A stretch of DNA of 64,000 nucleotides from a virus. A program made the translations under genes and the position numbers. Below the pieces are notes generated by a model, which was not told where the DNA came from, did not search any database, and saw only the letters and a list, made by a program, of their open reading frames with translations. Shown in pieces: positions 19,174 through 41,069 of this stretch (positions within the stretch are counted from its first letter, which is position 1; each line of letters opens with the position of its first letter). The stretch is from the IMG/VR virus record IMGVR_UViG_3300048929_000741, positions 1 through 64,000 of that record; one strand, 5' to 3'.

Positions 19174-19206
19174 ACCCGAATTTGACGGATTACTGTACTT
19201 TGATAA

Positions 19207-20110
19207 CTTAATATTGATAGTTGGTAGAAATTTCTGTATTATATAAGTTAGATACGGAATTTATATAGGAGAATGTGAAATGAATGACATGATTGATTTT
19301 TTAAATGATGATAGAAATCCTAGTATGTATGGCATTTTGACTGGTATATGTAAAGGTGAGCATTGGTCTTTAAATGAAGATTTCCTGATCTTAGACGTAG
19401 CATACTCTTATTGTGTCGGTGGTTGTGGCGTGGTTGGTAGGATTCCATTTGAGAAAACGAAACAAGCAAGAGTATTTTTTGAAAGAATTTTTTCTTCACT
19501 TAAGGAAAAGAATATATGTGAATTTGAATTTTCATCAGAGGACAATGCGTTATGTGCAAAGATACTGGATATTTTTTCTGATAAAGAACTATATTCAGAG
19601 GAAGAATATTCATATCGGAAAGCAGATAAGTGCGTAGATAATGCTGTTATGCCATCTTATACATTTTTAGAAGTAAATAGAAGTTTTATGAAAATGATAG
19701 ATATATATATAAATGCTGATATGTTGCTTGAACGCTTGAATAACTCATGGTATTGCCAAGAAGATTTTTTTAGATATAGTAAGTGTTTTGTAGCAATACA
19801 AGGAAAGGAAATTGTTGGCATTATATTTGGTTCTGCAAGATTTTTAAATATTATTGATGTTGATATTGAAGTGTTAAAAGAACATAGAGGAAAAGGGATT
19901 GCTACAACGCTGACTTCTTATTTTGTAGATGCTTGTATTAGTAATGGGTGGATAGTACAATGGGATTGCGTTGAATCCAATATTAAATCTAGAGCAGTCG
20001 CTGAAAAATGTGGATTTCAGTTGTTCAAAAAGAGACCATATTACTGGTTTACTTTATAAAATTAAATTTATATGTGTATTATTAAAAAATTACTAACTAT
20101 CAGTATTAAG
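19207..20110. repeat. Inverted-repeat pair bracketing the GNAT moron
   Basis: CTTAATATTGATAGTTGGTA (19207-19226) vs TACTAACTATCAGTATTAAG (20091-20110), 18/20 complementary. Confidence 0.8.
19280..20059 (+). CDS. GNAT acetyltransferase (moron)
   Basis: EHRGKGIATTL, WDCVESNIKSRAVAEKCGF; AT-rich, own promoter and terminator. Confidence 0.85.
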   Translation: MNDMIDFLNDDRNPSMYGILTGICKGEHWSLNEDFLILDVAYSYCVGGCGVVGRIPFEKTKQARVFFERIFSSLKEKNICEFEFSSEDNALCAKILDIFSDKELYSEEEYSYRKADKCVDNAVMPSYTFLEVNRSFMKMIDIYINADMLLERLNNSWYCQEDFFRYSKCFVAIQGKEIVGIIFGSARFLNIIDVDIEVLKEHRGKGIATTLTSYFVDACISNGWIVQWDCVESNIKSRAVAEKCGFQLFKKRPYYWFTL

Positions 20111-20209
20111 CTGGTAGTTTTTTTGTTGTAGTAAATCCAGAAAACTGAAATTTAGCAGCCAACTGCTAAGCGTTGGAGAAAAGAGAAGATCGAGCCGGAG
20201 GTGATTTAA

Positions 20210-21151
20210 TTGGGGACAGGTAGAAGCTGGGCTCCTGCGGAAGAATCCTACTTGGAGGAAAAATGGGGGACCATATCAATTAAGGGTATTGCAAAGAATT
20301 TAAACCGATCAGAGAATGCTATTGTTGTGCGGAGTCAGAGAATGGGTTTAGGAGCCTTTCTTGACGCTGGGGATTATATTACTTGGAACCAGCTCCAGAT
20401 TGCACTTGGAATGGGCTTATCAGGTAGTGGATACAAAATGATTTCGTGGGTAAAGAACAGAGACTTTCCTATACATACTAAACTGATCAGAAGCAAATCG
20501 TTCAAAATAGTATTTTTAAATGAGTTCTGGGTGTGGGCGGAAAAGAATCAGACGTTTCTTGATTTCTCTCGATTCGAGCCTTTGACGTTGGGGGAAGAAC
20601 CTGCGTGGGTACAAGGGAAACGCAGACATGATTGTGAAAACCGGAGACGGATTAAAAATATACCATGGTCTACCTCAGAGGATAATAAATTAATCAGACT
20701 GGTTAAGAAGCAGCAATACGGAGTTCTGGAATTATCAAATCTGATGGGGCGCACTGAAGGAGCAATACAACGCCGACTAATAGATCTTAAGATTAAGGAT
20801 CGCCCTGTAAAAGCGGATAATACAGTCAGATGGACAGACGGCGAATTCAAATTACTTGGTGAGATGATTGTAGCAGGAAAGAAGTACGAGATGATGGCGG
20901 CAGTTCTTGGTAAGTCAACAAAAGCCATTCGCGGACGGGTATATCAGATGTATTTAACAGAGAATCTGGACAAGGCCAGGGCTATGATAGGACAAGGACC
21001 TTGGGGTGCTGGTCGCCCAGAACGCAGGATTAAGCATTACCTGCATATGGATGAAAATGAGCGTAGGCAGACCAAAGAATTAATAGCAAGATTAGCGGTA
21101 GCTCTCCAAGCAGCACCTTTTAGCACAAAAAGAAGGGAGAATAAAATTTGA
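20210..21151 (+). CDS. Phage DNA-binding protein with repeated Myb-like HTH units
   Basis: Three W-x-x-x-E/D...IA..L.RS/T..AI repeats. Confidence 0.65.
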   Translation: MGTGRSWAPAEESYLEEKWGTISIKGIAKNLNRSENAIVVRSQRMGLGAFLDAGDYITWNQLQIALGMGLSGSGYKMISWVKNRDFPIHTKLIRSKSFKIVFLNEFWVWAEKNQTFLDFSRFEPLTLGEEPAWVQGKRRHDCENRRRIKNIPWSTSEDNKLIRLVKKQQYGVLELSNLMGRTEGAIQRRLIDLKIKDRPVKADNTVRWTDGEFKLLGEMIVAGKKYEMMAAVLGKSTKAIRGRVYQMYLTENLDKARAMIGQGPWGAGRPERRIKHYLHMDENERRQTKELIARLAVALQAAPFSTKRRENKI

Positions 21152-21419
21152 AGAATTGGGTTAAATGGGTAAGCGTAGGTGTCGCAATCTCCGTAGGAAT
21201 TTTTATTACGAAGAACCCTAATTGCTTATGGGCGTTTTTCATTCCGGTTTTCTGTGAATAACGAAGGTACATTGGCTATGAAATATAACTTACATATGCT
21301 TTTACGAAAGATTGTAATGCGATGGACCGGGAAGAACTGCGGGACCTGTAAGCATTATGATGGGAGATTTGGTGATGATACTTGTTTCCTCTGTGAACAA
21401 AGCGTAAAGGCGGTGGAAT

Positions 21420-21770
21420 ATGAACAAAGGTAGAAAGTATACGATTTATGCCGTAGATTTTGATGGGACTTTATGCGAAAGTGTTTGGCCTGGAATTGGT
21501 AGCCCAAATACTGTACTGATTAATCATTTGATAAGAAGGCGGAGAGAGGGTAATAAAATAATCCTCTGGACATGTCGGTGTGAGAAGCGTCTGGAAGCGG
21601 CTGTTTCATGGTGCAGGTCTCATGGTCTGGAATTTGACGCTGTGAATGAGAATTTATCTGAAATGTTGGAGTTCTATGGAAATGATTCAAGGAAGATATT
21701 TGCTGATGTTTACATAGATGATAAGGCAAAGATTAAAGCACGGTATTGCATTCCATTCAAGGCGGTATAA
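21420..21770 (+). CDS. HAD-like phosphatase
   Basis: AVDFDGTL, ILWTCR, ADVYIDDK. Confidence 0.8.
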   Translation: MNKGRKYTIYAVDFDGTLCESVWPGIGSPNTVLINHLIRRRREGNKIILWTCRCEKRLEAAVSWCRSHGLEFDAVNENLSEMLEFYGNDSRKIFADVYIDDKAKIKARYCIPFKAV

Positions 21771-22184
21771 ATGATGGAAGAAAATCTGCTTAGAAAATAC
21801 TGGTCCACTTATACGGACGCTTGGAAACTTATGAAAAATCGTCACATGGTTGAACCGGAGCATGTGGCACAGATGATAAAAAAGCATGAGAATCCTGTCA
21901 TGAACCGGGTGTTTTGTCTGGTTGTCTGGCAGGAAATAAAAAGAATTAAATCCGGCGGCGTTCCTCTTCAGGACAAGCAGTACGAAGAATGTCTTACCGG
22001 AGCCTGGAAACTTTTCAAACAGTACATCTAACCAAATGATTCAGATGAATACTGGAATGGCCTTGTTGATATGATCAGGGCCATGTCCAAGCAATATGAC
22101 AATTGTAGTTTTATAAGTAATCTCCTGATCCATGTAACACTGGAAGAACTTGAACGGATTTGGAGAGCGGGAAAACAAAAATAA
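21771..22184 (+). pseudogene. Phage hypothetical gene with in-frame TAA at 22029
   Basis: The frame continues for 50 codons (PNDSDEYW...RAGKQK) after the stop. Confidence 0.65.
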
Positions 22185-22236
22185 TGAAAGGAGCCGTTCC
22201 CCGGCCGGGAGAGTGTACACGGAACCTTTTTGAAAG

Positions 22237-23979
22237 ATGAGAGACTTAATTATTGATTGCTTTGCCGGTGGAGGAGGGGCGAGTGTTGGAATTGAGATGG
22301 CATTAGGACGACATGTAGACATTGCAATTAACCACAATCCTCAGGCTATCCGGATGCATAAAACGAATCACCCAGACACACTGCATCTGACAGAGGATAT
22401 CTTCAAGGTTGACCTGCAGAAGTATGTAAAAGGTCGCCACGTAGCTTTGATGTGGGCCAGTCCTGATTGTACCAGCCATAGTAAAGCAAAGGGTGGAAAG
22501 CCACGAGAGAAAGGGCTAAGAATTCTTCCCTGGGCAGTATATAAACATGCGAAAACTATTTTGCCCGATGTTATTTTAATGGAGAATGTTGAAGAGATCC
22601 AGCAGTGGGGACCGTTGGATAAAGAGGGGTATCCCATAAAGGAACGCAAAGGAGAAGACTACCAGAAGTTTGTAAGAGCAATGAAATCGCTTGGTTATGT
22701 GTTTGATAGCCGGGAACTGGTAGCAGCTGATTATGGAGCTCCTACCACAAGAAAAAGATGGTATGCAATCTTCCGGAGAGATGGGAAACCGATTGTTTGG
22801 CCGGAACCAACTCATAATAAAAACGGAAATGATGGATTTAAAAAATGGGAACCTATCTGGAAGTATCTGGATTTGACAGATTTAGGAAAATCTATCTTTG
22901 GTAGAAAAAAGCCACTGGCAGACAAGACAATGAACCGGATTGCCAGAGGACTTGATAAGTTTTTATTTAACTGTCCAGAACCATTTATAGTCCAAGTCAA
23001 CCATGGGGGCGATCACTTCCGAGGTCAGAATATTCATGAGCCTATGCCCACCATAACACAGAAACATGGATTTGGAACTGTAACGCCTTATATTGTCCCA
23101 ATAGGATACGGGGAACGGGAAGGGCAGCTCCCACGGATAAACAGTGCAGAAGATCCGGTTAGCACGATTGTTGCCAGTGGAAACAAGCATTATTTATGTT
23201 CTCCATATATCATGCAGCTGGGACAAACAGGATTTTGCGCAGATAGGAATAGATCCCTTGAAGATCCAATGAGTACAGTGGTTACGAAGAATGAACATTG
23301 TTATATTAGTCCTCTTTTGATTCAGTATCATTCCCAAACTTCTAAGTCAGAGGTGAGAGGGCAATCGGTCGATGAACCGATAATGACGATTGACACCAGT
23401 AACCGCTATGGACTGGTGGCGGCTTTCCTCACGAAGTTTTATAAGACGGGAGTGGGACAGCCTTTATGGGAACCGATACACACAATCACAACCAGTCCGG
23501 GACATTTTGGACATGTAAGCATTCTTGCGATTAGCAAGGAAGAACTGCTAAAGAATGGTGTTGATGAAGAAACGGCGCAGAAATGTACTTGGGTGAGTCA
23601 GTTTATCATTAAGTACTATGGTGGTGATGTAACTGGAGTAAGCCTAGAAGAACCGTTACATACGATCGTGACAAAGGATAGATTCGCCCTGGTTACGGTT
23701 CTTGGAAACGAGTATGTGATTTTGGATATCTTTCTCCGAATGCTAAAAGCTGAACCGGAATTAAAACTGGGACAGGGATTTCCGGAAGATTACATCATAG
23801 ATCATGATTATGAAGGAAAGAAATATGCAGCATCAGAACAAGTGGCCCGTATTGGAAACAGTGTTGTTCCCATTGTGGCTGAAGCATTGGTTACGGCTAA
23901 TTGCCCGCATCTAAAAATTGGAGAGCGAATGCCGAATTTGAAAATTGATGACAGCCAGGCACAGCTTAGATTTGCTTAA
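22237..23979 (+). CDS. C5 cytosine DNA methyltransferase (long phage type)
   Basis: DCFAGGGG, WASPDC, MENVEE, TTRKR, QVARIGNSV. Confidence 0.9.
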   Translation: MRDLIIDCFAGGGGASVGIEMALGRHVDIAINHNPQAIRMHKTNHPDTLHLTEDIFKVDLQKYVKGRHVALMWASPDCTSHSKAKGGKPREKGLRILPWAVYKHAKTILPDVILMENVEEIQQWGPLDKEGYPIKERKGEDYQKFVRAMKSLGYVFDSRELVAADYGAPTTRKRWYAIFRRDGKPIVWPEPTHNKNGNDGFKKWEPIWKYLDLTDLGKSIFGRKKPLADKTMNRIARGLDKFLFNCPEPFIVQVNHGGDHFRGQNIHEPMPTITQKHGFGTVTPYIVPIGYGEREGQLPRINSAEDPVSTIVASGNKHYLCSPYIMQLGQTGFCADRNRSLEDPMSTVVTKNEHCYISPLLIQYHSQTSKSEVRGQSVDEPIMTIDTSNRYGLVAAFLTKFYKTGVGQPLWEPIHTITTSPGHFGHVSILAISKEELLKNGVDEETAQKCTWVSQFIIKYYGGDVTGVSLEEPLHTIVTKDRFALVTVLGNEYVILDIFLRMLKAEPELKLGQGFPEDYIIDHDYEGKKYAASEQVARIGNSVVPIVAEALVTANCPHLKIGERMPNLKIDDSQAQLRFA

Positions 23980-24000
23980 TTTATTGTTCTTTGATAATTG

Positions 24001-24638
24001 AATATTGATAGTTGATGAAGTATAATAAATTTATTACAATTGATGGAGGGGTAGCATGAAAGACGAGATGAAGAGAGTTATCGAAGAAGATATACAAAAG
24101 GCAACAGAAATATTAAGAGATAATAAAGAAGATGAATGTGAGACTTTTTATCAAAGCCTTATATCGAAATATTCTCCATACATAAAAGGATTTGGAGATA
24201 ACTTATTTTACATAAGTATGTATGATGATTTTTCTACTACAATGGATAATATTCAAATTTTGCGTGATAAATTAGTTTTATTTAAAGCTGGAGGTTTTAT
24301 GGATTTTAGTGAAAGTCAAAAAAATTCATCACCCTTAATTACAATTACAAATGAAAATAAAAATGAAAACGCAAATTCTGTAAACATTACTATTTCTTTT
24401 AACGAAGTTCGAAAAAGCATAGAAAATATGTCGGCACTTACAGATTTTGAAATAGAAGAAATTCTGTTAAAAATAAATAATCTTGAAGAAATTGTAAATT
24501 CTAAAGACAGAAAATCTAAAAAATGGGAAAATGCAAAAGGTATAATCAATTGGATTGCAGATAAAGGTGTAGATGTTGGAATTGCATTATTACCGTTACT
24601 ATTGCAAATAAAATAATATTCAGCCAGCTATCAATATT
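24001..24638. repeat. Inverted-repeat pair bracketing moron 24056..24616
   Basis: AATATTGATAGTTG (24001-24014) vs CAGCTATCAATATT (24625-24638), 13/14 complementary. Confidence 0.75.
24056..24616 (+). CDS. Hypothetical moron protein
   Basis: AT-rich; TTGAAT-17-TATAAT promoter, RBS, downstream terminator. Confidence 0.75.
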   Translation: MKDEMKRVIEEDIQKATEILRDNKEDECETFYQSLISKYSPYIKGFGDNLFYISMYDDFSTTMDNIQILRDKLVLFKAGGFMDFSESQKNSSPLITITNENKNENANSVNITISFNEVRKSIENMSALTDFEIEEILLKINNLEEIVNSKDRKSKKWENAKGIINWIADKGVDVGIALLPLLLQIK

Positions 24639-24899
24639 TGATGGCTGGTTTTTTATTGCAAAAAATGAAAGGAGGCTGGATCTCCTGCGGGGCAAAGTCA
24701 TGACGGTTCCTTTCAAAAGAAACCATTTATTAAATACACGAGAGAAACAGGGAGAGTTCCGTTCATTGGAACAACACAATACGAGGGATTTGTGAGAGCT
24801 CGCCTTTATTCACACACAGGCTGTAATGTGTATGATGGAAAGACGATTAAAAGCCAACCCATCATTATTATAGTCAAATATAATTTATTGGAGGATATA

Positions 24900-25358
24900 A
24901 TGGAGGAAATTAAACGACTGGTGAAACAATTTCGAGATGCAATAGATAAAGCGAGAGATGCAGGGGAATTTGATAAGGACTTTTCATTTTACAAATTTCC
25001 ATGTGGGTGCTGCGGTGATGCCAGTGAGTTATTAGCTCAATTTTTATTGGAAAACGGTATTACAACATTTTATGTATGGGGTATGTATTCCAGTAGTCTG
25101 TCTGAAAGTCCTCAATCTCATGCGTGGCTATTGGATCATAATCATACTATTATAGACATCACTGGTGATCAGTTTAGAGATAATCCTATTTATCTGAATT
25201 ATTATAAATCAGTCTATGTTGGAGACGAAGATGATTTTCATAGATTATTTAGAGTTAATCCAAGAAATATTAAAAAAAATATTGGCATAGGTTCATTGGC
25301 GAGCCACTGCCAACCGAGGTTATATAATTTGTATGATAAGATCATTAAACATAGTTAG
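24900..25358 (+). CDS. Hypothetical protein with transglutaminase/papain-like Cys-His-Asp motifs
   Basis: FPCGCCGDASELL, SHAWL, IIDITGDQF; RBS GGAGG. Confidence 0.55.
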   Translation: MEEIKRLVKQFRDAIDKARDAGEFDKDFSFYKFPCGCCGDASELLAQFLLENGITTFYVWGMYSSSLSESPQSHAWLLDHNHTIIDITGDQFRDNPIYLNYYKSVYVGDEDDFHRLFRVNPRNIKKNIGIGSLASHCQPRLYNLYDKIIKHS

Positions 25359-25555
25359 AATTATAAATTGATACAAGCCGGGGCATAGACCCCGGTAAAA
25401 AAATAGCATAAAAAGAACATACATTCGATTTAACGGAAATAAACAAGCGGCAGAGTCACCGACCAAAGATCTTCTACCGCTTCACGCTTAAGGATATTAT
25501 AAAAGAAAATGTCTCCTTAAGCAACTGAAATTTAACGAAAAGGAGATTACATATT

Positions 25556-26593
25556 ATGAATGGACAAACCATAAAAGCACAGGTAATTAATAATATCATT
25601 GTTGCCATGGCGGAGCATGTGACTAAGGACGTTTTAGAAATTCTTCACCAGACGATAATAAAGGAATTTGTCAATGTCAATATGGAGGAAATAACCACTC
25701 TTCCAGTAGAGTACCAGAATGACACGGATCAGAAGAATAAGTATATCGTTCAACTTTTTATAGTGAAGAAGAAAATCAAAGATAATACTAAGCAAGCATA
25801 CCTTAGTTCAGTTAAACGCCTGATTACCTTAATTGATAAACCACTGGACAGGATAGAGGAATCCGATATCAGCTATTACCTTTCATGGTATGAGAAGCGG
25901 AATATTAATGTCGGCGGCAAGAAGAATCAGGCCATTACCGTAAATAATGAAAGGCGTTTCCTATCAGCGTTCTTCACATGGATGCGAAAGGAGAAATTGA
26001 TTGGAGAAAATCCGGTTGAAGCAACGGATCCGCTCAAAGCTATTAAAAAACCAATTGATTATTTTAGGCCAGAGGAAATGACAAAAATGAAAGACGCCTG
26101 TAAGAGTTTCCGGGAACGTGCCTTAATAGAGGTGCTGCGCAGCACTGGTGCCAGAGTAGGGGAGTTGGTAGAGATAACCCTTGACCAGATAGACTGGAAT
26201 ACCGGGGATATCATGATCCTGGGTGAGAAGAGCGACAAATATCGTCCGATATTCTTAGATGATGATGCCAGGTATTATTACCGGAAGTATATGGAGTCCC
26301 GGAACGATGATAGCCCCTTTATGTTCCCTCAGTGTAAGGCACCACATGATCAGATGACGACTTCCGGAATCAGGAGCATACTTAAAACTATTGGAAAGCG
26401 CGCCATGGTGAAAAGTAGGGTGTATCCCCATAAGATCCGTAAAACGCTCGGAATGACACTTAAAAACAAAGGTGTGGATATTGGAACAATACAGGAAATC
26501 ATGGGACATGGAAGTCCTTCTGTGACTGCGGCATACTATGCTCAATCGACTCCTGACACTTTGAGAAACATAAGAGAGAGGTGCATAGCCTAA
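25556..26593 (+). CDS. XerD-like tyrosine recombinase
   Basis: N-terminal SAM-like domain, STGARVGEL, YPHKIRKT, MGH...YY. Confidence 0.9.
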   Translation: MNGQTIKAQVINNIIVAMAEHVTKDVLEILHQTIIKEFVNVNMEEITTLPVEYQNDTDQKNKYIVQLFIVKKKIKDNTKQAYLSSVKRLITLIDKPLDRIEESDISYYLSWYEKRNINVGGKKNQAITVNNERRFLSAFFTWMRKEKLIGENPVEATDPLKAIKKPIDYFRPEEMTKMKDACKSFRERALIEVLRSTGARVGELVEITLDQIDWNTGDIMILGEKSDKYRPIFLDDDARYYYRKYMESRNDDSPFMFPQCKAPHDQMTTSGIRSILKTIGKRAMVKSRVYPHKIRKTLGMTLKNKGVDIGTIQEIMGHGSPSVTAAYYAQSTPDTLRNIRERCIA

Positions 26594-26955
26594 TGGAAAA
26601 TAAGACGAGAACTCAACTGAAAAACTTGGCTGCAATAAATGCTGCTATTGCTGAAGCTGATGAAGAAATTCAGATATTACAGAAAGAAGCGTCTACACAT
26701 GGGTTTGAAGTAGAATATGTTTCTGCCTTGAATGAATTAAAACAAAAAATTATATATTATCGCTATCAAAAAGTAAAGATATGTTTGGAAGTGTATGATC
26801 AGATAGAGACCCTGGAAAATGAGCAGGAAAAGCGATTATTGAAATATAGGTATATAAGGGGTTACCGCTGGGAGGTTATTGCAGAAAAAATGGGATATAG
26901 TATCAGACAGATTTTTAATATACATAAAGTTGCATTATATGGATTAAAACCATAG
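26593..26955 (+). CDS. RinA/ArpU-like transcriptional regulator
   Basis: LLKYRYIRGYRWEVIAEKMGYSIRQI (sigma4-like HTH). Confidence 0.75.
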   Translation: MENKTRTQLKNLAAINAAIAEADEEIQILQKEASTHGFEVEYVSALNELKQKIIYYRYQKVKICLEVYDQIETLENEQEKRLLKYRYIRGYRWEVIAEKMGYSIRQIFNIHKVALYGLKP

Positions 26956-27052
26956 AGTTCTTAAAGAAAAGAAAGCCTCAGAAAAAAAAGACAACATTAA
27001 TTCGTGGGGCTTTCTATTAATGCAATGTTCTATCTGATGCCTATATAGCTTT

Positions 27053-28420: not shown

Positions 28421-29449
28421 ATGAATTTTACGTTTTTAGATTTTTTTTCTGGCATAGGTGGATTTAGAAAAGGTATGGAACTTGCCGGCCATAAATGTGT
28501 TGGTTTTTGTGAATGGGATAAGTATGCTGTAATGAGTTATACATCAATGCATTTAATATCCAGAGAGCAAAATGAATACCTTCTTCAACTTCCATTGCGA
28601 GAAAGGCAAAAAGAGATTTTAAAGGAGAATTATAGAAATGGGGAATGGTACGCAAATGACATCAGAAATATTGCAGCCAGAGAATTGCCCAGAGCAGATG
28701 TATGGTGTTTCGGATTCCCATGCCAAGACATTTCCATTGCCGGGAAGAGACTTGGATTTGCTGGGAAACGTTCAAGTCTGTTTTTCACAGTTACAGGACT
28801 TATTAGAGACCTGCCGGAAGAAAATAAACCCTCAATCCTATTTATTGAGAACGTTAAAAACTTACTTAGTGTTAATAGAGGGCTCGATTTTGCCAAACTT
28901 CTCATTGAATTGGACGAAGTCGGCTATGATGCAGAATGGCAAGTTCTCAATACCAAAGATTTTGGAATCCCACAAAGTAGAGAAAGGGTGTTTATTGTTG
29001 GATTTCTTAGAGGAAGAACCAGAAGAAAAGTATTACCTATCAGAGGAACAGGCAGCAAAAATAATCTTTCATTAAAGATCAAGAAACATAGAGAAGGTTT
29101 TTTAATCAGGGATGCAAATGAAAAAGGTTACACTCGAGCTGAGGTAGGAGATGGTATAAAATTAGATTTCCCCAATAGTACGACTAAGCATGGTCGAGTT
29201 GGGAAAGGAAAGGTTCATACATTAACAACCGCATGTAATCAAGGTGTTGTTTGTATGAAAGATAAGGTCCCTAAGATTCGCAAGCTTACCCCGAGAGAAT
29301 GTTTTCGTCTGCAGGGATGGAAAGACAAATATTTTGAACAGGCAGCTATGGTTAATAGCGATAATCAGCTTTATAAGCAGGCGGGTAATGGAGTAACTGT
29401 GAATGTAATTCAGGAAATAGCAAGTAAGTTTCATCTTTTAGATTCATAA
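28421..29449 (+). CDS. dcm: C5 cytosine DNA methyltransferase
   Basis: FSGIGG, GFPCQ, IENV, QSRER, RKLTPRECFRLQG, QAGNGV. Confidence 0.92.
   Translation: MNFTFLDFFSGIGGFRKGMELAGHKCVGFCEWDKYAVMSYTSMHLISREQNEYLLQLPLRERQKEILKENYRNGEWYANDIRNIAARELPRADVWCFGFPCQDISIAGKRLGFAGKRSSLFFTVTGLIRDLPEENKPSILFIENVKNLLSVNRGLDFAKLLIELDEVGYDAEWQVLNTKDFGIPQSRERVFIVGFLRGRTRRKVLPIRGTGSKNNLSLKIKKHREGFLIRDANEKGYTRAEVGDGIKLDFPNSTTKHGRVGKGKVHTLTTACNQGVVCMKDKVPKIRKLTPRECFRLQGWKDKYFEQAAMVNSDNQLYKQAGNGVTVNVIQEIASKFHLLDS
28638..29075 (+). CDS. Putative overlapping alternative-frame polypeptide within the C5 MTase
   Basis: 145-codon open +1 frame with WTKSAMMQNG and LLDFLEEEPEEKYYLS. Confidence 0.55.
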   Translation: MGNGTQMTSEILQPENCPEQMYGVSDSHAKTFPLPGRDLDLLGNVQVCFSQLQDLLETCRKKINPQSYLLRTLKTYLVLIEGSILPNFSLNWTKSAMMQNGKFSIPKILESHKVEKGCLLLDFLEEEPEEKYYLSEEQAAKIIFH

Positions 29450-33062: not shown

Positions 33063-33493
33063 TGCCCGTAAATCGATTTGACATTGACAGGTGAGAAAAT
33101 GTCCACGAAAGACATTTAAAACGGCGCACGGGGCAAAATTAAGCGTTAAAATGGGTTTTAAATCTATTAGTCATAGCACAGATAGAACAGAAACAGATAG
33201 AATCTAAAATCAAGGAGTTGATAACATGCAGGGAATAAGTGATAAGTGTGGCCGGGAAAGCTGCAGGTTTCAGGACACTGGGAAATGTACGAATACGGAG
33301 CAGCGGGATGAATGTCTGAAACTGCTGAATCAAATCATTCCTGATCCAGAAGACCGGATAACTTTGGCATTATCAGATCAGGTAGTTAAAGATTAATAAA
33401 TCTGTGGTATTTACCCAGATAAATAATATATAAAGCTTTTATATGTATCTGTATGATACCTGTATAAGACACAGAAAGGAGATATAAAACATT

Positions 33494-34126
33494 ATGTCAG
33501 ATAATATTAATTACACTACTGTAGCTGATACTGATGGGAATACAGTAGATGTCTTTGAAAATGAGATATCTCTATATCTCCAAGAATACATAGATGAACG
33601 TGGTATATCTGATATGCGTAAAGAACCACAGAGTCGTTGGAACGCTGCTCTTATATATATAAATAAAGCTTTATTTGGTGTTAATAAAGATAAATTAATT
33701 ATAGATAGCAGAGTAAGTAATGCTTATAATATAGACCTTATTAGTAGTATATGTGATGTTTATATAACTCTCTGTTATGAATATGACAAGGAGATTAGTA
33801 TTATAGGTTTCTCTAAGTTAACAGGTATTAATCAAGATACTTTCTATTCTTGGGGCAATAATGAGACGCAAGTCGGTTCTGGTGCCTCCGAGATATACAA
33901 AAAACTTAATTCCGAAAGAGAAGAAAGTTTGAGCAACAAATTGATTTCTGGCGGTTCCAATCCCATGAAAATACTCCCGGCACTCAACCGACATTACGGG
34001 TGGAACATGGGACAGCCAAGAGGAGCGGACGGCGCGGCGCGCATATCAGTGAGTCGTGAGGAGATAGAAGCTAGGGCTCACACAGTGGATCTGCTGCCGG
34101 AATCGGCTGACGAATTACCTGATTAA
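33494..34126 (+). CDS. Probable terminase small subunit
   Basis: ISIIGFSKLTGINQDTFYSW HTH, LNRHYGW; upstream of TerL. Confidence 0.65.
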   Translation: MSDNINYTTVADTDGNTVDVFENEISLYLQEYIDERGISDMRKEPQSRWNAALIYINKALFGVNKDKLIIDSRVSNAYNIDLISSICDVYITLCYEYDKEISIIGFSKLTGINQDTFYSWGNNETQVGSGASEIYKKLNSEREESLSNKLISGGSNPMKILPALNRHYGWNMGQPRGADGAARISVSREEIEARAHTVDLLPESADELPD

Positions 34127-34164
34127 GGGCATAAGAAAAGCCCCGGCGATTGCCAGGGCAGTGA

Positions 34165-34743
34165 TTAAATCAAGAATAGATTTTTTTGAATAGCTTCTTC
34201 AATTTGCTTCGGTTGAATGCCAATGTATCGCTGAGTAACAGCAGCACTTGAGTGTTGCAGGAGTTGCCGAACAAGCTCAATATTGTATCCATTGTCATTG
34301 TAAAGGTTGGTCGCGTAGAATTTGCGGAAGCTGTGGGAACCAATATTATCAAGGCTTAGAGCCTCGCAGACCAGTTTTAAATGCTTTTGAATGGCTCTTT
34401 CGCTGATATCAAACAGTTTCGCACGACTGGATATGTTATTATCAAGCGCATATTGCAAGATGTAATTATACAGCTCGACCGGCACAGTAAAGTTTCTTTC
34501 CTTTTTGGTTTTCCCCTCTGTGATATTAAGGCGATACCGTTCGCCATCTTTGATAATGTCACATGCGTGGAGCTGCAGCACATCACCAATACGTAAGCCC
34601 AGGTTGGCTTCCAGTACTAAGGCAGTAGCGATCCGGTTGTTCGGCTTACAGGCGGTACCGTCCTTGGCTATGAACCCAGATCGGATAGTGTCAATGATAA
34701 GCTGATATGATTCGCGGGTTAGTGTCACGGTTTTTTTATTCAT
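34165..34743 (-). CDS. Small catalytic-domain-only tyrosine recombinase
   Basis: LGLRIGD, EGKTKK, GSHSFRK, LQHSS...RYIG; RBS AAGGAGG. Confidence 0.88.
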   Translation of the reverse strand: MNKKTVTLTRESYQLIIDTIRSGFIAKDGTACKPNNRIATALVLEANLGLRIGDVLQLHACDIIKDGERYRLNITEGKTKKERNFTVPVELYNYILQYALDNNISSRAKLFDISERAIQKHLKLVCEALSLDNIGSHSFRKFYATNLYNDNGYNIELVRQLLQHSSAAVTQRYIGIQPKQIEEAIQKNLFLI

Positions 34744-35017
34744 TCTATACTCCTCCTTGAAAGTTCGTAAAATACTTCTGAAAAGTTCGTATAATCTATT
34801 AACACCATCATACCACACGATAAAACCATTGTAAATACGTAATAGTTCGTTTGCTAACCATTTTACGAACTCAGAAACACCAATAGAAAAAGTACCCGGG
34901 ACGGGGTCTATAGGAAAGCTGTTTTCGGCCTTGTTATGTACGGAAAGTCCGAAAAATTCAAAAAGGGCTTTTCGTCAAAGATAAGAATTTGATCAAGAAA
35001 GTAAAGGGGTAAATATC

Positions 35018-35476
35018 GTGATAGACCTTACAGGAAAGTTTATAACCACTACGACAAATGAAGAAAGTGAAAGATTGCTTAGAATGGCATCTGCACGAGG
35101 ATATAGAACAGATATTGGATTGAAAGTGTTGGTCAACAAAAGACTTTTCCATTTTTCTGAGTTTCCTAAATGGATAACTACACCGGCTTATTTTCATATA
35201 CCGGATAATGCTTATACATACCAGGAATTATTCGGAGAAGAAGATGAGGAAATGAGCAGAATATTATCTGATTCATTACGATTCTGCCGGGCGCATGGAT
35301 ATAGCCTTTTCAGGATTTACGTAGATGATGAGACCATGTCATTCAAGGGGAAAGCGATAGCCAAAGGAGATTCAGGAGATCGTAAAGAGATTGAAAAGAG
35401 TATTGGTAAGCCAATTAAACTTTCAAAGGCTGACATTGAACTGCTTGTAGGATGTCCTGTGGAGATCGTTTCTTAG
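35018..35476 (+). CDS. Hypothetical phage protein
   Basis: C-terminal LSKADIELLVGCPVEIV. Confidence 0.6.
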   Translation: MIDLTGKFITTTTNEESERLLRMASARGYRTDIGLKVLVNKRLFHFSEFPKWITTPAYFHIPDNAYTYQELFGEEDEEMSRILSDSLRFCRAHGYSLFRIYVDDETMSFKGKAIAKGDSGDRKEIEKSIGKPIKLSKADIELLVGCPVEIVS

Positions 35477-35537
35477 AAAAGTAATTCTCAAAAATTTTAA
35501 AATTTATAAAAAGGCCTTTCCTCAGGAGGATACATTA

Positions 35538-35984
35538 ATGTTTAATCGAAAACTATTGTTTGCCAAAAGGCATAGAGGAACTTTCCTGTTTGCATTTGTG
35601 AACTTCAAAACTCAGGAATGTTATGAATGGTATATTCAGTTCTCTTTAAAGAACCCCTGGTGGATCCCTAAATATGATCCATATTACCTGAATGGGAAGT
35701 GGCCGTTAGCCGGTTGGTTGTTTTTCTATTTTGGCAGACATACCAGAGGAGCAATCATTCCATGTATGGAACGCGAGATTCCCGAAGGCAAGAAGCCCAT
35801 TATTGATAAAACTGGTAAGAAGTATATGATTTACAATCTTCCTGATGAAGAACTGGCCAGAAATTTCCGGAGGACGATTCTCCGGTATAACTGCAATGTA
35901 GAGATTGAAAAAGATGGGGATACGGTGACAGTTGTGAATCGTGTTCAGTCCAGAAGATGGATTTCAAATTTTCTTAAAAAATAA
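35538..35984 (+). CDS. Hypothetical phage protein
   Basis: RBS AGGAGG. Confidence 0.6.
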   Translation: MFNRKLLFAKRHRGTFLFAFVNFKTQECYEWYIQFSLKNPWWIPKYDPYYLNGKWPLAGWLFFYFGRHTRGAIIPCMEREIPEGKKPIIDKTGKKYMIYNLPDEELARNFRRTILRYNCNVEIEKDGDTVTVVNRVQSRRWISNFLKK

Positions 35985-36000
35985 AAAAGGGTTGTATGCT

Positions 36001-36186
36001 ATGAAGAAAAAACTGTACATGGCAGTAGAGACCGATGAATATGAGCTGCCGCTTTATGTGGCAGATACTTCAAGAGAACTGGCTGACTGGTCTGGATTAA
36101 GTATTGGATATATATTGAGTGCTATATCACACGGCTATTCCGGAAAGAAAGCTGGAATGAAGTTTCTGAGAATTGAAGTTGAATAG
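36001..36186 (+). CDS. Small HTH-like phage protein
   Basis: YMAVETDEYELPLYVADTSRELA. Confidence 0.6.
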   Translation: MKKKLYMAVETDEYELPLYVADTSRELADWSGLSIGYILSAISHGYSGKKAGMKFLRIEVE

Positions 36187-36225
36187 GAGAAATTAATTAT
36201 AACTAAACCAATAGGCAAGCGCCCA

Positions 36226-37206
36226 TTAGTTTAGCCGAATATTACATTTAGTCGTATAATCATTTATTTCAAGATATGCATAAAAAGAAGAACCCGCTTT
36301 ATTTATTTGATATCTTTGGTATGCACTACCTGTAACCTTATTTAAGTCAACAATGTTTAATGATAATAATAACGGGCAAATATTTTTCCTTACAAAATCG
36401 ATTTCTGGTAATGATTTATTATTGGCCGTTTTAATACTAATTAACCCCGTACATAACTTTCCAAAAAAAGCAATAAATATATCTAAAAAAGACGCATTAA
36501 TATTTCCATCTGTAGTGGGTAGATCATAATATTTACTATTCATTAAATTGATGAGTTCTGGATAAGGTATTCCGTTTATTGATTGAGTAGTATTCTTGTT
36601 TATTTTTAGTTTTTCGTTTTCTTTAACTAATTTCAGGTTTTCTGCAGCTAACGTAGTGTTATTTTTTAAGAGTTTAGTTAATTCTTGATTACCAGTATCT
36701 TTAATCCAACCGGATAATTTGTATGTGCTTTGAAATTCACTTAGAGTTGTGAGAACAGCAATTTTAATATCCTTACAATCTTCTACTGGACGAATTACTT
36801 TACTCATGACATATTTTTTAAATGATTGATACTTCCCAGGCTCAATTTGCTCTATTGTGTTAGATAAGCCTAAAATTGCAGCTTTTTCTGTCAGCCAACT
36901 TTCTTTTATTAGAACTGCAAATACAGGGATTTTCTTCTTGATAGCATAGCGGTATTCGAGTTCAGTATAACTTAAACCAGAATTTATTTCTATGGAACCA
37001 TATCGTCCACCAAGAATTAACATATATACATCTGATTCATCAATCCATTTATATATTGTATTTAATTGTGACTGATTGCCAGCTTTGAATAATTCCATGC
37101 CTGCAGGAATATGACCAGCATCAAGGATCGCTTGTACGGCAGCCTGTCTTTCTTCTATCAGATCAGTATATGTTGAAGATACAAAAACCTGTAATTTTTT
37201 ATCCAT
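36226..37206 (-). CDS. DUF4062 domain protein (moron)
   Basis: QVFVSSTYTDLIEER, PAGMELF, GGRYGS, YTELEY. Confidence 0.88.
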   Translation of the reverse strand: MDKKLQVFVSSTYTDLIEERQAAVQAILDAGHIPAGMELFKAGNQSQLNTIYKWIDESDVYMLILGGRYGSIEINSGLSYTELEYRYAIKKKIPVFAVLIKESWLTEKAAILGLSNTIEQIEPGKYQSFKKYVMSKVIRPVEDCKDIKIAVLTTLSEFQSTYKLSGWIKDTGNQELTKLLKNNTTLAAENLKLVKENEKLKINKNTTQSINGIPYPELINLMNSKYYDLPTTDGNINASFLDIFIAFFGKLCTGLISIKTANNKSLPEIDFVRKNICPLLLSLNIVDLNKVTGSAYQRYQINKAGSSFYAYLEINDYTTKCNIRLN

Positions 37207-37320
37207 TTAATGCTACCCCCCTCTTTGTAAACTATAACAATTATACTTCATTATTAGGGATAAAGCAATTTTAAAAGAAGTATTTAGTCTATAAAAAATA
37301 AAATAATAGGAGGGTTATTT

Positions 37321-37572
37321 ATGTTTGATAAGACCATTAATAATTTTAGAGCCGGGAGGCTCCGAGAAGCTGCAACTATTATCAGTAATGAGTTTATGCA
37401 GAAAGGTGACTGGTACAATGCTTTAGTAGCCTCTATCCATGGATATTTACAGGAAACCGATGGCTCAATTCCTTATGATCAGATGGCGCTGGAATTAGCA
37501 AACAGGATAGTTGGTATAGAACCAGATCCTGTAGAAGATACAGAATGCGGTTCTGAAGACTATGAATTTTGA
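37321..37572 (+). CDS. Hypothetical phage protein
   Basis: RBS GGAGG. Confidence 0.6.
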   Translation: MFDKTINNFRAGRLREAATIISNEFMQKGDWYNALVASIHGYLQETDGSIPYDQMALELANRIVGIEPDPVEDTECGSEDYEF

Positions 37573-37584
37573 AAGGGGATATCC

Positions 37585-37977
37585 ATGGATAAAAAAGAAT
37601 TAGCCCATATAATTAATGGTCGGGAATATGGCTATGAGATCTTCAGAGACGTGCGTCGCGCTGCCATAGATGCCGGTCTGGTTATCGTAAGCGGTGCTTC
37701 TGATGACTTGATTGAGTTTGATGGAGCTATTTATGATGAAGGCGGTTGCTTTGATGGTAGAAAAGTATATTTTGACCGGAATGGCGTTTCGCAAGATGGT
37801 TCAGAACGGGCAAACTGTATTGAAGCCTTCTGGTGCGATAAAGCCGCATTAGATGAAAATGGTAATGTGATTCCATGGACATATAAAACGGATATCCCTC
37901 ATGAAACATTTATGATTTATGAAGACGGGGAGCCGTATTGTAAGGGTATCGTGTTTGATTTGTTAGATGTGAAGTAG
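37585..37977 (+). CDS. Conserved phage protein
   Basis: GASDDLIEFDGAI, WTYKTDIPHETF. Confidence 0.7.
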   Translation: MDKKELAHIINGREYGYEIFRDVRRAAIDAGLVIVSGASDDLIEFDGAIYDEGGCFDGRKVYFDRNGVSQDGSERANCIEAFWCDKAALDENGNVIPWTYKTDIPHETFMIYEDGEPYCKGIVFDLLDVK

Positions 37978-38156
37978 GAGGTAAGATTTTGGAAGTTTTG
38001 AAGTGGATTGTAACAGTTTGGAATGTATTTATGGCGGTATTTATCTGTTGGTTTTCCAGAGGAATGACTTGGAAAAGAGAAAAAGCAGCTATGATCGGAT
38101 TTGGATTGATGGCAATTATGTATGTTCTGGCCTTGGCGCCAATTTGGAGATAACTG

Positions 38157-38894
38157 ATGGACAAAACAAAGATTGATTGGTGTGATAGCAGCTGGAATCC
38201 GGTAACGGGTTGTCTACATAATTGCGAATATTGTTACGCAAGGAGTATTGCTAATCGTTTTGGCTTTCATACTAGCGAACCAGATATAAGTGAAAGAATC
38301 TTAGAAGAGGTTCCGATAAGTAGAGGTAAGAAAGTCCCATACCTATTTGATTTTCAGCCGACTTTACACAAATATCGCCTTGATGAGTACCTGTATAAAA
38401 AAGGCAGAAATATTTTTGTCTGTTCCATGGCTGATCTATTTGGCGAATGGGTTCCGGATTCTTGGATTAATGAGGTTATGAGTGGATGTCAAAATGCTCC
38501 TCAGCACAATTATCTATTTCTTACAAAGAATCCAGTTCGATATGCTAAATTGGCGGCTAAAGAACTTCTTCCAAAGAAGAATAATATGTGGTATGGATTT
38601 TCATGCACAAGGCCTGGATATACAGGGTGGTTTAACAAGCGGTTCAATACATTCGCAAGCATTGAGCCGATATTAGAACCGTTAGAAATTCCGGTAGTTG
38701 ATTGGGTGATTGTTGGAGCGGAGACGGGTAGGCGAAAAGATAAAGTCATTCCAAAGCGTGAATGGATTGAAGATATTGTTAGTCAGTGTGCAAAATCTGA
38801 CATTCCTGTATTCATGAAGTCCAGTCTATCAGAAATATGGGGACAGCCTTTAATTCAGGAATTTCCAGAGCAGTTAAGGAGGCCGGGAATATGA
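38157..38894 (+). CDS. DUF5131 (phage Gp37/Gp68) family protein
   Basis: IDWCDSSWNPVTGC...CEYCYA, IFVCSMADLF, WVIVGAETG. Confidence 0.88.
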   Translation: MDKTKIDWCDSSWNPVTGCLHNCEYCYARSIANRFGFHTSEPDISERILEEVPISRGKKVPYLFDFQPTLHKYRLDEYLYKKGRNIFVCSMADLFGEWVPDSWINEVMSGCQNAPQHNYLFLTKNPVRYAKLAAKELLPKKNNMWYGFSCTRPGYTGWFNKRFNTFASIEPILEPLEIPVVDWVIVGAETGRRKDKVIPKREWIEDIVSQCAKSDIPVFMKSSLSEIWGQPLIQEFPEQLRRPGI

Positions 38895-39196
38895 TTTGCT
38901 TCACAGAACAGCAGAAACAGGAAATAGTACATACAGGAATACTGGTAATCGAATTTAAGAGGTCAATATTGAGGGCCTGTGAAGTACTGAAAGACATGTT
39001 TATGTTTGTCAAAGATGTATTTCTTCAAATTGCAGACAAAATCTCCAAATGCGTGCAGGTGATTCGGAAAGAATATCGAGATGTGCCGCCAAAGAAAAAA
39101 TATAAGGTTATCAGCAAGCTGGACAAGTGCGGATTTACAGAAAAGGAAATAAACTTGATGGTAGGCGGTGTATACCACTGCCGGAATAATTGTTAG
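38891..39196 (+). CDS. Hypothetical phage protein
   Basis: Coupled ATGA overlap; C-terminal YHCRNNC. Confidence 0.55.
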   Translation: MICFTEQQKQEIVHTGILVIEFKRSILRACEVLKDMFMFVKDVFLQIADKISKCVQVIRKEYRDVPPKKKYKVISKLDKCGFTEKEINLMVGGVYHCRNNC

Positions 39197-39674
39197 AGAG
39201 GATGTAAGATAAATTGATTTTTACATATTTGGGAATTGTCCTGTTCTTCACGTTCGAATGGGTTAAATTCATAAAATTAGATTCACTGACTTTATCCGAA
39301 CGGCTTAGCGGTGCCTGGATAATAGACAGTTCGAGGCACCCAGTTTAGATGGTGTCTGTATCGAAGAAAAGTGCTGAATATAATGATTATACCGCTTAAA
39401 GCAGTTAGTAATTGTTACAGACGATGGCAACGCAGTAATGACGGTAAGTTGCTGAGAAGTCCGTTAGAGTGAAATATCCTCATGGCTGAATGCTAATTAA
39501 GGGCCGTCACTGGCCCGTGGGAATTTGCCCGGAAACGGGCATTGGCGTATTTACCTTTCGCCTCATAGCTGTTTGCTGTTAAGGCGGAGTGAATCCCCCG
39601 TGAGGTTTTTATCCTTATCTCCACTTAGTGGGATTTCCTGCATGAAGTCCTGTCGATGGGTGATGTATGGGATA

Positions 39675-39793
39675 GCAGGTATTAGTTTTATGATGGTTAA
39701 AACAGGCTGAAGCGTATGTAAAGACATGCAGGTTCAGGTTCACATACATACGTCAGGAAGCAAGACGTGCGGTTCGATTCCGCATATACCTGT
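39675..39793 (+). ncRNA. tRNA-like RNA with an expanded anticodon arm
   Basis: Acceptor GCAGGTAT/ATACCTGT, D-arm GTTTTA-TGATGGT-TAAAAC, T-arm TGCGG-TTCGATT-CCGCA; long CGTATGTA/TACATACG hairpin in place of the anticodon arm. Confidence 0.5.
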
Positions 39794-39799
39794 TGGAAA

Positions 39800-39970
39800 T
39801 AATCTGGCTTAGTCAGTCAGAAAATTTCAAGTAAGAGGTTGCAAACTCTTGCGTGATTGCGGTGGTGGTTCAAATCCACAATCCTGTTATATGAGTATGT
39901 GTGAGGCTAACATTGAAAGTTTGGCAGGTAAGGCGTAGGATAATCGCAGGTTCGACTCCTGCCACTGTAA
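39800..39970 (+). pseudogene. Two further degenerate tRNA-like units (one with a GCA, Cys-like loop)
   Basis: AAGAG-GTTGCAAA-CTCTT, T-arms GTGG-TTCAAAT-CCAC and GCAGG-TTCGACT-CCTGC; no clean cloverleaf. Confidence 0.4.
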
Positions 39971-39987
39971 TTTGCACATTGGAAATT

Positions 39988-41069
39988 GAATATTGATGGT
40001 TGGTGAGTTATAATGTACTCAAACACAAATGATGAGGGGGTTCTTATGGATAAGCGATATCAGGTATTTATAAGTTCTACATTTACCGATTTGAAAGAAG
40101 AAAGAAAGGCTATTATTGAAGGACTTTTAAATGCGAAGTATATACCTTCAGGGATGGAAATGTTCTCAGCTTCTAATGATGAGCAATTTAAGTACATAAA
40201 GAAAATTATTGATACTTGTGATTATTATGTTCTTATTGTGGGGGCAAGATATGGTTCGATTAATTCCACCACAGGTAAAAGTTTTACTGAACAGGAATAT
40301 GATTATGCTATTAAAAAGGGGATTCCAGTGTTAGCTTTTCTACATGATGATCCTTATAATCTTCCAGCTGAAAAACGAGAAGATGAAAAAAAAGAACTAT
40401 TAGAAAAATTTAGAAATAAGGTTTTAAATGCTGATCGGTTATGCAAGATGTGGCATTCGTCATCTGAGCTTACATCATTGGTTATAATAAGCCTTGTTGA
40501 AGAAGTAGCAGAAAATCCGCAGATGGGTTGGATAAGAGGTGATATTGCTGATACAACTGAATTGCTGTCTCAAATAAATATGTTAAGGAATAAAAATGAT
40601 GATTTAAAAAAAGAATATGATAACTTGAAAAAAGAATATGAGTTCTTAATAACTCCTGTAAATGATAATATTGCATCAGGAGATGATGTATTTGAAGTTA
40701 TTGGAGAAAAAGAAGCTTATTTGTATGATGATGATTCGTGGCTCGAGGAAACAAGAAAAGAATTTACTTGGAAGGAAATTTTTTCTGCAGTAGGTCCATA
40801 TTTGTTTGTACAACGAATATATGATGATTTCACATATTACTTGAGAGAATCATTAAATTCTGCGTATGATTTTAATTTTATAAAATTGAATGATAATTGC
40901 GTTCAAGTCATAAAAATTCAATTATGCGTTTTAGGTCTTATTGAGATAAATAATATGAAATTTAATGGAGCAGATGTAGAGGGAATTGTTATTACAGAAA
41001 GAGGTAAGACGTATTTATTAGAAATAAAAACAGTTAAGAAGTGACTTACACTACCAACCATCAATATTC
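39988..41069. repeat. Perfect 17-bp inverted-repeat pair bracketing the DUF4062 moron
   Basis: GAATATTGATGGTTGGT (39988-40004) vs ACCAACCATCAATATTC (41053-41069). Confidence 0.9.
40046..41044 (+). CDS. DUF4062 domain protein (moron)
   Basis: MDKRYQVFISSTFTDLKEER, GARYGS, FTEQEY. Confidence 0.88.
   Translation: MDKRYQVFISSTFTDLKEERKAIIEGLLNAKYIPSGMEMFSASNDEQFKYIKKIIDTCDYYVLIVGARYGSINSTTGKSFTEQEYDYAIKKGIPVLAFLHDDPYNLPAEKREDEKKELLEKFRNKVLNADRLCKMWHSSSELTSLVIISLVEEVAENPQMGWIRGDIADTTELLSQINMLRNKNDDLKKEYDNLKKEYEFLITPVNDNIASGDDVFEVIGEKEAYLYDDDSWLEETRKEFTWKEIFSAVGPYLFVQRIYDDFTYYLRESLNSAYDFNFIKLNDNCVQVIKIQLCVLGLIEINNMKFNGADVEGIVITERGKTYLLEIKTVKK

Follow-up and report, generated by a model that had tools for sequence, protein, structure and literature searches.

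Why should three unrelated accessory genes of one prophage be enclosed by the same promoter and the same terminator, and why should these two signals be complementary to each other? The question is raised by a stretch of 64,000 nucleotides (nt), hereafter the window, which comprises positions 1-64,000 of the IMG/VR virus record IMGVR_UViG_3300048929_000741 and is part of a 78-kb provirus; the provirus is a Lachnospiraceae prophage. A first-pass annotation of this DNA had placed a GNAT gene, a gene without a family and a DUF4062 gene in one shared inverted-repeat frame. We analysed the three cassettes, here called W1, W2 and W3, together with other loci gathered by sequence scans and designated by L-numbers. 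The answer that we favour is that they are morons in a swappable frame resembling the PeSL cassettes of T4-type phages, and that the complementarity of the two frame ends most likely provides an antiterminator gated by the choice of promoter; we give this reading, which builds on predicted signals and modelled RNA folds, a probability of about 0.45.

Exact copies of the 14-mer AATATTGATRGTTG are present on the + strand of the window at 19210, 24001 and 39989, and its reverse complement is found at 41055 (no mismatch), 24625 (one mismatch) and 20094 (two mismatches). When up to two mismatches were allowed, 11 matches were counted in the window against 2.69 expected, and 11 was reached by no shuffle. 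The + copies lie 45-70 nt 5' of start codons, each inside a predicted sigma-A-like promoter, and the minus copies start 6-31 nt past a stop codon, where each makes up the 5' arm and loop of a predicted hairpin that is followed by a T-run (Table 1). The left module of the frame, about 45 nt in length, consists of TTGAYAA, the box GAATATTGATRGTTGG, which gives the -35 element and the spacer, and a TATAAT-type -10 element. The spacing between the -35 and -10 elements is 17 in all three predicted promoters (TTGATA-17-TATTAT once and TTGAAT-17-TATAAT twice). In the right module, of about 35-45 nt, the box recurs as its reverse complement and there provides the 5' arm and loop of an intrinsic terminator. 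Since the box always lies 5' of the -10 element, the mRNA initiated at the cassette's own predicted promoter would not contain it. The left module can also be read as four tandem heptads, TTGAYAA, TTGAATA, TTGATRG and TTGGnnn, for example at 39977-40004 and in most of the listed loci, a pattern that may stem from a binding protein, from stacked -35 elements or from slippage.

At W1, positions 19207-19227 pair with 20090-20110 and are Watson-Crick matched at 18 of 20 positions, both exceptions being G.U; at W2 the pairing is 13 of 14, with U.G as the exception, and at W3 positions 39988-40004 pair with 41053-41069 at 17 of 17. All mismatches between paired copies in the window are hence G.U when read in + strand RNA. 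W1 and W2 are of A-type (GATAG/CTATC) and W3 is of G-type (GATGG/CCATC), each being internally matched. The first-pass annotation was confirmed in these respects: the positions and complement counts of the shared frame, the A/G variant that covaries between the ends, the overlap of the upstream copy with the -35 element and spacer, and the downstream copy as part of a terminator.

Table 1. Promoter modules, terminator modules and cargo genes of the three cassettes (positions are those of the window)
Feature	Position	Strand	Details	Basis
W1 promoter module	19193..19242	+	box CTTAATATTGATAGTTGGTAG 19207-19227; -35 TTGATA 19214-19219; -10 TATTAT 19237-19242	consensus scan
W1 cargo	19280..20059	+	GNAT acetyltransferase, 259 aa, 31% GC (flanks about 40-42%)	Pfam PF12746 9e-20
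W1 terminator module	20090..20126	+	reverse-complement box 20090-20110; hairpin 20095-20119 (AACTATCAG / CTGGTAGTT); then T-run	terminator scan
W2 promoter module	23984..24026	+	-35 TTGAAT 23998-24003; box GAATATTGATAGTTG 24000-24014; -10 TATAAT 24021-24026	consensus scan
W2 cargo	24056..24616	+	186-aa protein, 26% GC	no Pfam or PADLOC match
W2 terminator module	24622..24656	+	reverse-complement box CAGCTATCAATATT 24625-24638; hairpin 24622-24650; then T-run	terminator scan
W3 promoter module	39972..40014	+	-35 TTGAAT 39986-39991; box GAATATTGATGGTTGGT 39988-40004; -10 TATAAT 40009-40014	read directly
W3 cargo	40046..41044	+	DUF4062 protein, 332 aa, 30% GC	Pfam PF13271 1e-29
W3 terminator module	41053..41085	+	5' arm ACCAACCATC 41053-41062; loop AATATTC 41063-41069; 3' arm GGTGGTTGGT 41070-41079; then T-run	read directly

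The three cassettes are morons by all three classical criteria. A single gene is enclosed by its own predicted promoter and factor-independent terminator in each case; syntenic relatives of W1, W2 and W3 have homologous flanks with a different cargo between them; and the base composition of the cargo is atypical, with a GC content of 26-31% compared to 39-43% in neighbouring genes. The GNAT and DUF4062 calls were borne out by Pfam, the middle gene stays without a family, and PADLOC found no defence family among the three window cargos. Morons of temperate phages are reported in the HK97/HK022 comparisons by Juhala, Hendrix et al. The cassettes described here share with the classical ones a single accessory gene of atypical composition, with its own promoter and intrinsic terminator, which is presumably expressed in the prophage and occupies a site between two genes that in relatives are direct neighbours or enclose something else. 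However, classical morons have individual and unrelated promoters and terminators, whereas here dozens of genes are carried in one standardised frame with complementary ends.

The extent of this standardisation became apparent when IMG/VR was scanned with the exact pattern TTGAATATTGATRGTTG, which returned at least 116 loci. Among the 117 matches listed, 90 are promoters of a single design, i.e. TTGAYAA, TTGAAT, ATTGATRGTTGG, a few bases and a TATAAT-type -10 element, often with TGn. The reverse-complement 13-mer is present 275-1117 nt downstream in 81 of these 90 listed promoter-type viral loci, mostly as an exact copy, and upstream in three. Most of the partnerless cases are explained by a cut at the contig end, a 1-nt indel in the loop part or a variant box, and among the matches listed only L070, L137 and L157 are clearly without a terminator partner. 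The converse scan with the terminator box recovered upstream partners that are slightly variant boxes (A-to-G changes, a 1-nt deletion, CTTAAT for TTGAAT), and a third scan gathered about 20 members of a subfamily to which W1 belongs. The frame was thereby found in more than 120 distinct cassettes of IMG/VR phages and prophages in bacterial genomes, with hosts in at least 12 Lachnospiraceae genera. In a scan of one genome per species, true cassettes were almost exclusively in Lachnospiraceae, the genera including Lacrimispora, Hungatella, Mediterraneibacter, Lachnoclostridium, Dorea, Blautia, Enterocloster and Tyzzerella. The frame is widespread in the temperate phages of this family. At L058 and L107 the promoter module is intact up to GGAATGG and is followed by a degenerate terminator-like segment, CTGTCAGTATTCGAATGTTGGG, with no -10 element and no gene; these loci may be collapsed cassettes. 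At L340 (- strand, near a contig end) the box hairpin lacks a T-run and precedes a promoter-like TATACT; this locus may be a composite terminator/promoter unit.

What the frame carries is variable. We sorted the cargo of 87 cassettes into 39 unrelated clusters. The virus and genome scans together gave 125 distinct cassettes, in which promoter box and terminator box enclose a span of 247-1389 nt (median 602 nt) and about 92% of the cargo is coding. Numerous cargo proteins are predicted membrane proteins, and the families represented include AbiJ_NTD4, KAP NTPase (PADLOC candidate PDC-S20), DUF2971 (PDC-S31), NYN, GIY-YIG, HATPase and DUF5677. Many are defence-like, and the repertoire is that expected of prophage defence and exclusion morons.

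At syntenic sites the exchange of cargo is exact, with the two modules as its borders. W1 and L413 have flanks and both modules in common and differ in cargo, as do W2 and L273, where the W2 promoter module is homologous to positions 1701-1768 of L273. The same holds for W3 when compared with L068, L080, L208, L212 and L238, which have syntenic flanks, common promoter and terminator modules and different cargo. Homology between such relatives ends at the promoter module and restarts at the terminator box. A single flank pair houses up to four cargo families, members of one cargo family were found with at least eight different flank contexts, and the upstream and downstream flank families have themselves been recombined. 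Cassettes also occur in tandem (L130, L226), with the starts of a terminator box and the next promoter box about 90-100 nt apart. At L176 (- strand, match at 1590-1607) a cargo-less scar is seen in which the left module through the box is fused to the T-run and the usual downstream flank, the structure that recombination between the box and the terminator 3' arm would leave. A search for empty sites gave no clean case for W1 or W2 in which the flanks on both sides are homologous; L308 is without a cassette but its upstream gene is unrelated. When four root-metagenome runs were compared with the window at 21.5-41.4 kb, contigs broke or branched at the promoter and terminator modules, and two joints (40005 to 41047, 40019 back to 24623) are most plausibly further cassettes of the same frame rather than signs of excision. 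Cargo is probably exchanged by homologous recombination in the two conserved modules of about 45 nt, in the manner of PeSLs; a RecT-type annealing protein is encoded in this prophage.

If recombination is the likely motor of exchange, is it also all that the complementarity means? The modules could serve solely as homology arms for cargo shuffling, the inverted relation between them being a legacy of their origin, e.g. from a palindromic terminator/promoter composite, that frequent recombination has kept uniform and that has no role in RNA. The swapping of cargo exactly at the modules, the tandem cassettes, the L176 scar, the branching of assembly graphs from root metagenomes, the L014 terminator, which is a perfect palindrome of the box, and the near-invariance of the box all suit this explanation. 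Three observations speak against it. The terminator 5' arm and loop, taken as their complement, match the box more closely than does the 3' arm, which differs from the box by a systematic GGT for GAT and a 1-nt offset; direct-repeat conversion therefore does not account for the match. If frames of A-type and G-type crossed over in modules of 45 nt, mismatched ends should result, and these are nearly absent even though one phage carries both types. Finally, the complement of the box is conserved even where it lies in the loop of an alternative hairpin. On balance we consider it somewhat unlikely that homology arms are the whole explanation.

The pairing itself was examined in 116 distinct left/right combinations that had passed a strict filter; of their 16 core pairs, 94% are Watson-Crick. 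At position 12, the site of the A/G variant, G-C was counted 65 times, A-U 50 times, G.U once and A.C never; position 16 gave 99 G-C, 10 A-U, six G.U and no A.C, and position 2 gave 79 G-C and 10 U-A. The end-to-end covariation that had been proposed from the window alone is thus met again as two-sided compensating changes at three positions. At positions 12 and 16, transition-type sites at which both sides were left free in the searches, the mismatches sum to seven G.U and no A.C, an asymmetry expected for + strand RNA and not for identity at the DNA level; it is suggestive only, because the frames are related. Of the cargo families, at least seven are found with A-type as well as G-type frames, and every time the two ends have changed in concert; the cargo family of W3 is also that of L103, which has an A-type frame. 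Ends mismatched for the A/G variant were found in two of the more than 120 cassettes (one of them in the strict set), and both are G.U.

The terminator offers two further indications. Its 5' arm retains the T opposite the box A (CCATC) while its own 3' arm usually reads GGTGG, so the 5' arm tracks the box rather than its hairpin partner. Where an alternative hairpin, CTACCAAC/GTTGGTAG, is used, the box complement TATCAATATT is located in the loop, where the terminator does not need it, yet it is conserved. The subfamily of W1, which includes about 20 other phage loci, shows a comparable adjustment. The -35 element of W1 is TTGATA, which frees the first hexamer to change; this hexamer reads CTTAAT, and the terminator has TATTAAG instead of TATTCGG, which opposite CTTAAT restores three Watson-Crick pairs. 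Judged from these patterns, selection appears to act on the complementarity as such, a conclusion that is well supported.

A constraint of this kind could nevertheless be read in DNA. The box might be bound by a regulator acting through repression, looping or a roadblock, or by a recombinase or transposase that uses the inverted copies as ends. Such a reader would fit a 16-nt sequence that is strongly conserved across genera with identical copies inverted at both ends, the four tandem TTGAnnn heptads of the promoter module, the behaviour of the cassettes as mobile units and the tyrosine recombinase gene at 25556-26593 in the variable region. It would not account for the strand asymmetry of the mismatches at polymorphic sites, which are G.U and not A.C, and the terminator is consistently an imperfect DNA palindrome, poorly suited to a dimer. 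No neighbouring gene is common to the loci inspected and no target-site duplication was seen. Conservation moreover continues outside both inverted copies, to TTGAYAA on the left and over the 3' arm, the T-run and about 10 nt on the right, so the copies are not the ends of an element. We hold recognition in DNA to be unlikely. A mobile cassette had been among the alternatives raised initially; what stands of it is the swapping of cargo in a fixed frame at syntenic sites, and what falls is the role of the inverted copies as ends. A transposon with terminal inverted repeats or a miniature inverted-repeat transposable element was rejected on the missing duplication and on the conserved, non-inverted sequence outside both repeats.

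Orientation bears on two other possibilities. The cargo is encoded on the strand of the frame in 117 of 125 cassettes, and the remaining eight are short and have, by chance, a slightly longer open reading frame on the other strand. A promoter-proximal segment lies between the inverted repeats and a gene for a tyrosine recombinase is nearby, as would be seen if the repeats were crossover sites at which an invertase flips the gene. The cargo, however, has a fixed orientation relative to the outer parts of the modules, no promoter box with reversed cargo occurs among the 117 matches listed, no strand-changing joint was found in the four metagenome runs, and the gene would lose its terminator once inverted. 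An inverton is scarcely credible, and was rejected on the fixed orientation and the lack of reversed junctions. Integron cassettes resemble the present ones in being small, exchangeable single-gene units that end in an imperfect palindrome, with a cassette start complementary to part of the 3' palindrome. They differ in that they are usually promoterless and need IntI, attI, Pc and attC sites of the R''/L''-L'/R' type, whereas the present cassettes are each equipped with a promoter and have a U-run terminator as their 3' palindrome. The nearby recombinase belongs to the phage-integrase family and has no cassette array beside it; integron cassettes were rejected on these grounds.

We then considered what the pairing would do in RNA. 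For read-through RNAs the folded segment began 60 nt upstream of the box and ended at the U-run; the cassettes' own transcripts were folded from the predicted transcription start site. The duplex between box and terminator has a mean predicted free energy of -26.7 kcal/mol against -13.9 kcal/mol for the terminator hairpin, and is the more stable of the two in all 106 cassettes compared; its helix spans 16-22 bp if the G.U pairs that prolong it into the 3' arm are included. Between sense and antisense duplexes, the sense one is favoured in 79 cases and the antisense one in 26. In the minimum free energy (MFE) structures of read-through RNA, the hairpin gives way to the long-range helix in 101 of the 121 cassettes scored and also in W1 and W3, while the hairpin is retained in 110 of 121 RNAs that begin at the predicted start site. 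For W1 the hairpin is valued at -10.9 and the duplex at -26.2 kcal/mol, with 20091-20107 paired to 19226-19210 in the read-through MFE structure, and for W3 at -14.5 and -30.7 kcal/mol, with 41053-41067 paired to 40004-39990. The corresponding values for W2 are -17.8 and -22.3 kcal/mol. As modelled, then, two mutually exclusive helices share the 5' arm of the terminator and the upstream one is at least as stable, which is the arrangement that characterises an attenuator.

On this basis we propose that the terminator is gated by the promoter at which the RNA began. A transcript from the cassette promoter would lack the box, fold the terminator and stop, insulating the downstream phage genes in lysogeny. 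A transcript arriving from upstream would carry the box, which would pair with the 5' arm, the loop and the start of the 3' arm, prevent the hairpin and let transcription continue. In attenuator terms the box (region 2) and the 3' arm (region 4) would compete for the 5' arm (region 3), with the whole gene lying between regions 2 and 3; as region 2 is located upstream of the internal promoter, the choice of promoter decides whether it is present in the RNA. Lachnospiraceae phages could thus plug defence and other cargo into operons without polarity. That the complementarity forms such a cis-acting RNA device, stopping cargo transcripts expressed in the prophage and invisible to lytic read-through, is given a probability of roughly 0.4-0.45. 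The distance is not prohibitive in principle, since the processing stalks of rRNA are long-range flanking helices that span 1.5-3 kb.

These stalks also suggest a different use of the same helix. Formed in a polycistronic RNA, it could be a site for RNase III that excises the cargo or separates the messages, like the stems around 16S and 23S rRNA. The pairing evidence applies equally to cleavage and to antitermination and does not separate them, the helix reaches 16-22 bp with the G.U extension, and long-range flanking stems are established for rRNA operons. Sixteen base pairs is, however, short for RNase III. The helix also necessarily removes the terminator hairpin, so that read-through follows in any case. 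We regard a processing stalk as quite improbable.

Several points weigh against promoter-gated antitermination. The near-invariance of the box across genera is explained no less well by a sequence-specific reader, or by recombination that spread it recently, than by a pure constraint on pairing. Over all core positions the ratio of G.U to A.C is 55:18, no more than follows from search patterns with one side fixed, which by themselves predict about 70% G.U among transitions. Each covarying site has only two alleles, and frames that are related do not count as independent samples. The promoters and start sites are consensus predictions. A local hairpin with a 7-nt loop is kinetically favoured over a partner that is 0.3-1.4 kb away with ribosomes translating in between. 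The claim that the upstream copy can pair over this distance and break the terminator, which the modelled folds of W1, W3 and most other members support, does not extend to W2, whose read-through MFE structure keeps the hairpin, the forced long-range helix costing +2.8 kcal/mol. The orientation of the flanking genes, co-oriented in 82% of cases upstream and 77% downstream, gives no more than moderate support, and placement in a lytic operon fails for about 20% of cassettes, including W3 with its downstream neighbour, which have an oppositely oriented neighbour; outside a co-directional operon a bypass would have no obvious purpose. Protein antiterminators, lastly, solve the problem of read-through in many phages.

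How much of this is new? The initial statement that no such system has been described was too strong for the frame. In T4-type phages, PeSL (promoter-early stem-loop) cassettes have conserved promoter and terminator motifs that flank variable ORFans in hyperplastic regions and mark points of exchange (Arbiol et al. 2010, PMC2839356; Comeau et al. 2014, PMC4122927). Here too the motifs stand at the breakpoints of gene replacement and the combinations of flank and cargo are shuffled. A further trait of PeSLs is the excision of mini-circles through recombination of the flanking motifs, with which the deletion scar at L176 is compatible. The PeSL is, however, a composite stem-loop-then-promoter unit between open reading frames of virulent T4-like myoviruses of Gram-negative hosts (PMC2839356, PMC4122927), whereas in the temperate Lachnospiraceae phages the promoter and the terminator are at opposite ends of the gene and are complementary, which is undescribed for PeSLs. 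Frame-type exchange of cassettes is already known from PeSLs; the complementarity of promoter and terminator is part of neither the moron nor the PeSL description, and no description of it in this sense, or of the motif strings, was found in our literature search, the coverage of which was incomplete.

Two regulatory systems are related by their logic. In attenuators such as the trp leader, the T-box and riboswitches, an upstream segment likewise competes with the 3' arm for the 5' arm, and the terminator cannot form once the helix nearer the 5' end has done so; here the segments are 0.3-1.4 kb apart across a translated gene, and the deciding factor would be the initiating promoter and not a ligand, a tRNA or a ribosome. 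In the retroregulation of int through lambda tI/sib, RNA from an internal promoter stops at a terminator that RNA from an upstream phage promoter passes. The bypass in lambda is due to N-modified polymerase and is followed by decay through RNase III, whereas pairing of RNA with RNA in cis is proposed for the present cassettes.

The surroundings of the cassettes are those of a prophage with a variable middle region. Replication genes (SbcC, RecT, DnaB-type) are located at 5-18 kb of the window, the RecT-type annealing protein being encoded at 7874-8797; the middle region has methylases and an integrase, and the large terminase is at 41959. Near-identical DNA was found in root metagenomes, a look for RNA runs that contain the stretch gave none among those listed, and the closest syntenic relatives are in Lacrimispora, Hungatella and 'Clostridium sp. 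E02'. A megablast search of 17-27 kb of the window against the INPHARED phage collection gave no match. The tyrosine integrase gene (25556-26593) lies between the replication and packaging modules and not at the prophage end, a location conserved in the relative L273, and two C5 cytosine DNA methyltransferase genes (22237-23979 and 28421-29449) are present in the same variable region as the cassettes. The gene 3' of W2 (24701-25358) is shorter by about 540 nt than its counterpart at L273:2350-3060, the difference following the first 20 codons or so, and is either an internal deletion or a shorter variant; its N-terminal motif is conserved and recurs in 65 viral loci.

Around W3, a second DUF4062 gene (36226-37206, - strand) encodes a protein 39% identical to the W3 cargo over the first 200 residues or so. 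This paralogous moron faces the opposite way, has an ordinary promoter-like site (TATAAT) and has the box at neither end, which lends moderate support to the proposed gating. Directly upstream of the W3 promoter, about 0.8 kb (39200-39985) is free of open reading frames and includes three segments that resemble the T-arm/acceptor 3' halves of tRNAs, GGTTCGATTCC, GGTTCAAATCC and GGTTCGACTCC; ARAGORN and Rfam identified no tRNA in this stretch. In a root-metagenome contig, the W3 promoter is preceded by GGGTTCGAATCCCAG.

Whether or not the complementary ends act as a switch, the frame marks the exact points at which these phages exchange cargo, and its two 16-nt boxes retrieve a large and diverse catalogue of prophage cargo from gut, rumen and root Lachnospiraceae, including many candidate defence or exclusion genes. 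If the proposed mechanism is true, it would be a new and very simple way to make termination depend on where transcription originated, and would explain how morons bounded by terminators are accommodated inside essential operons of temperate phages. It would also mean that an insulated expression cassette has been standardised by evolution and reused for more than 100 genes, and may provide a compact synthetic-biology part for Firmicutes.

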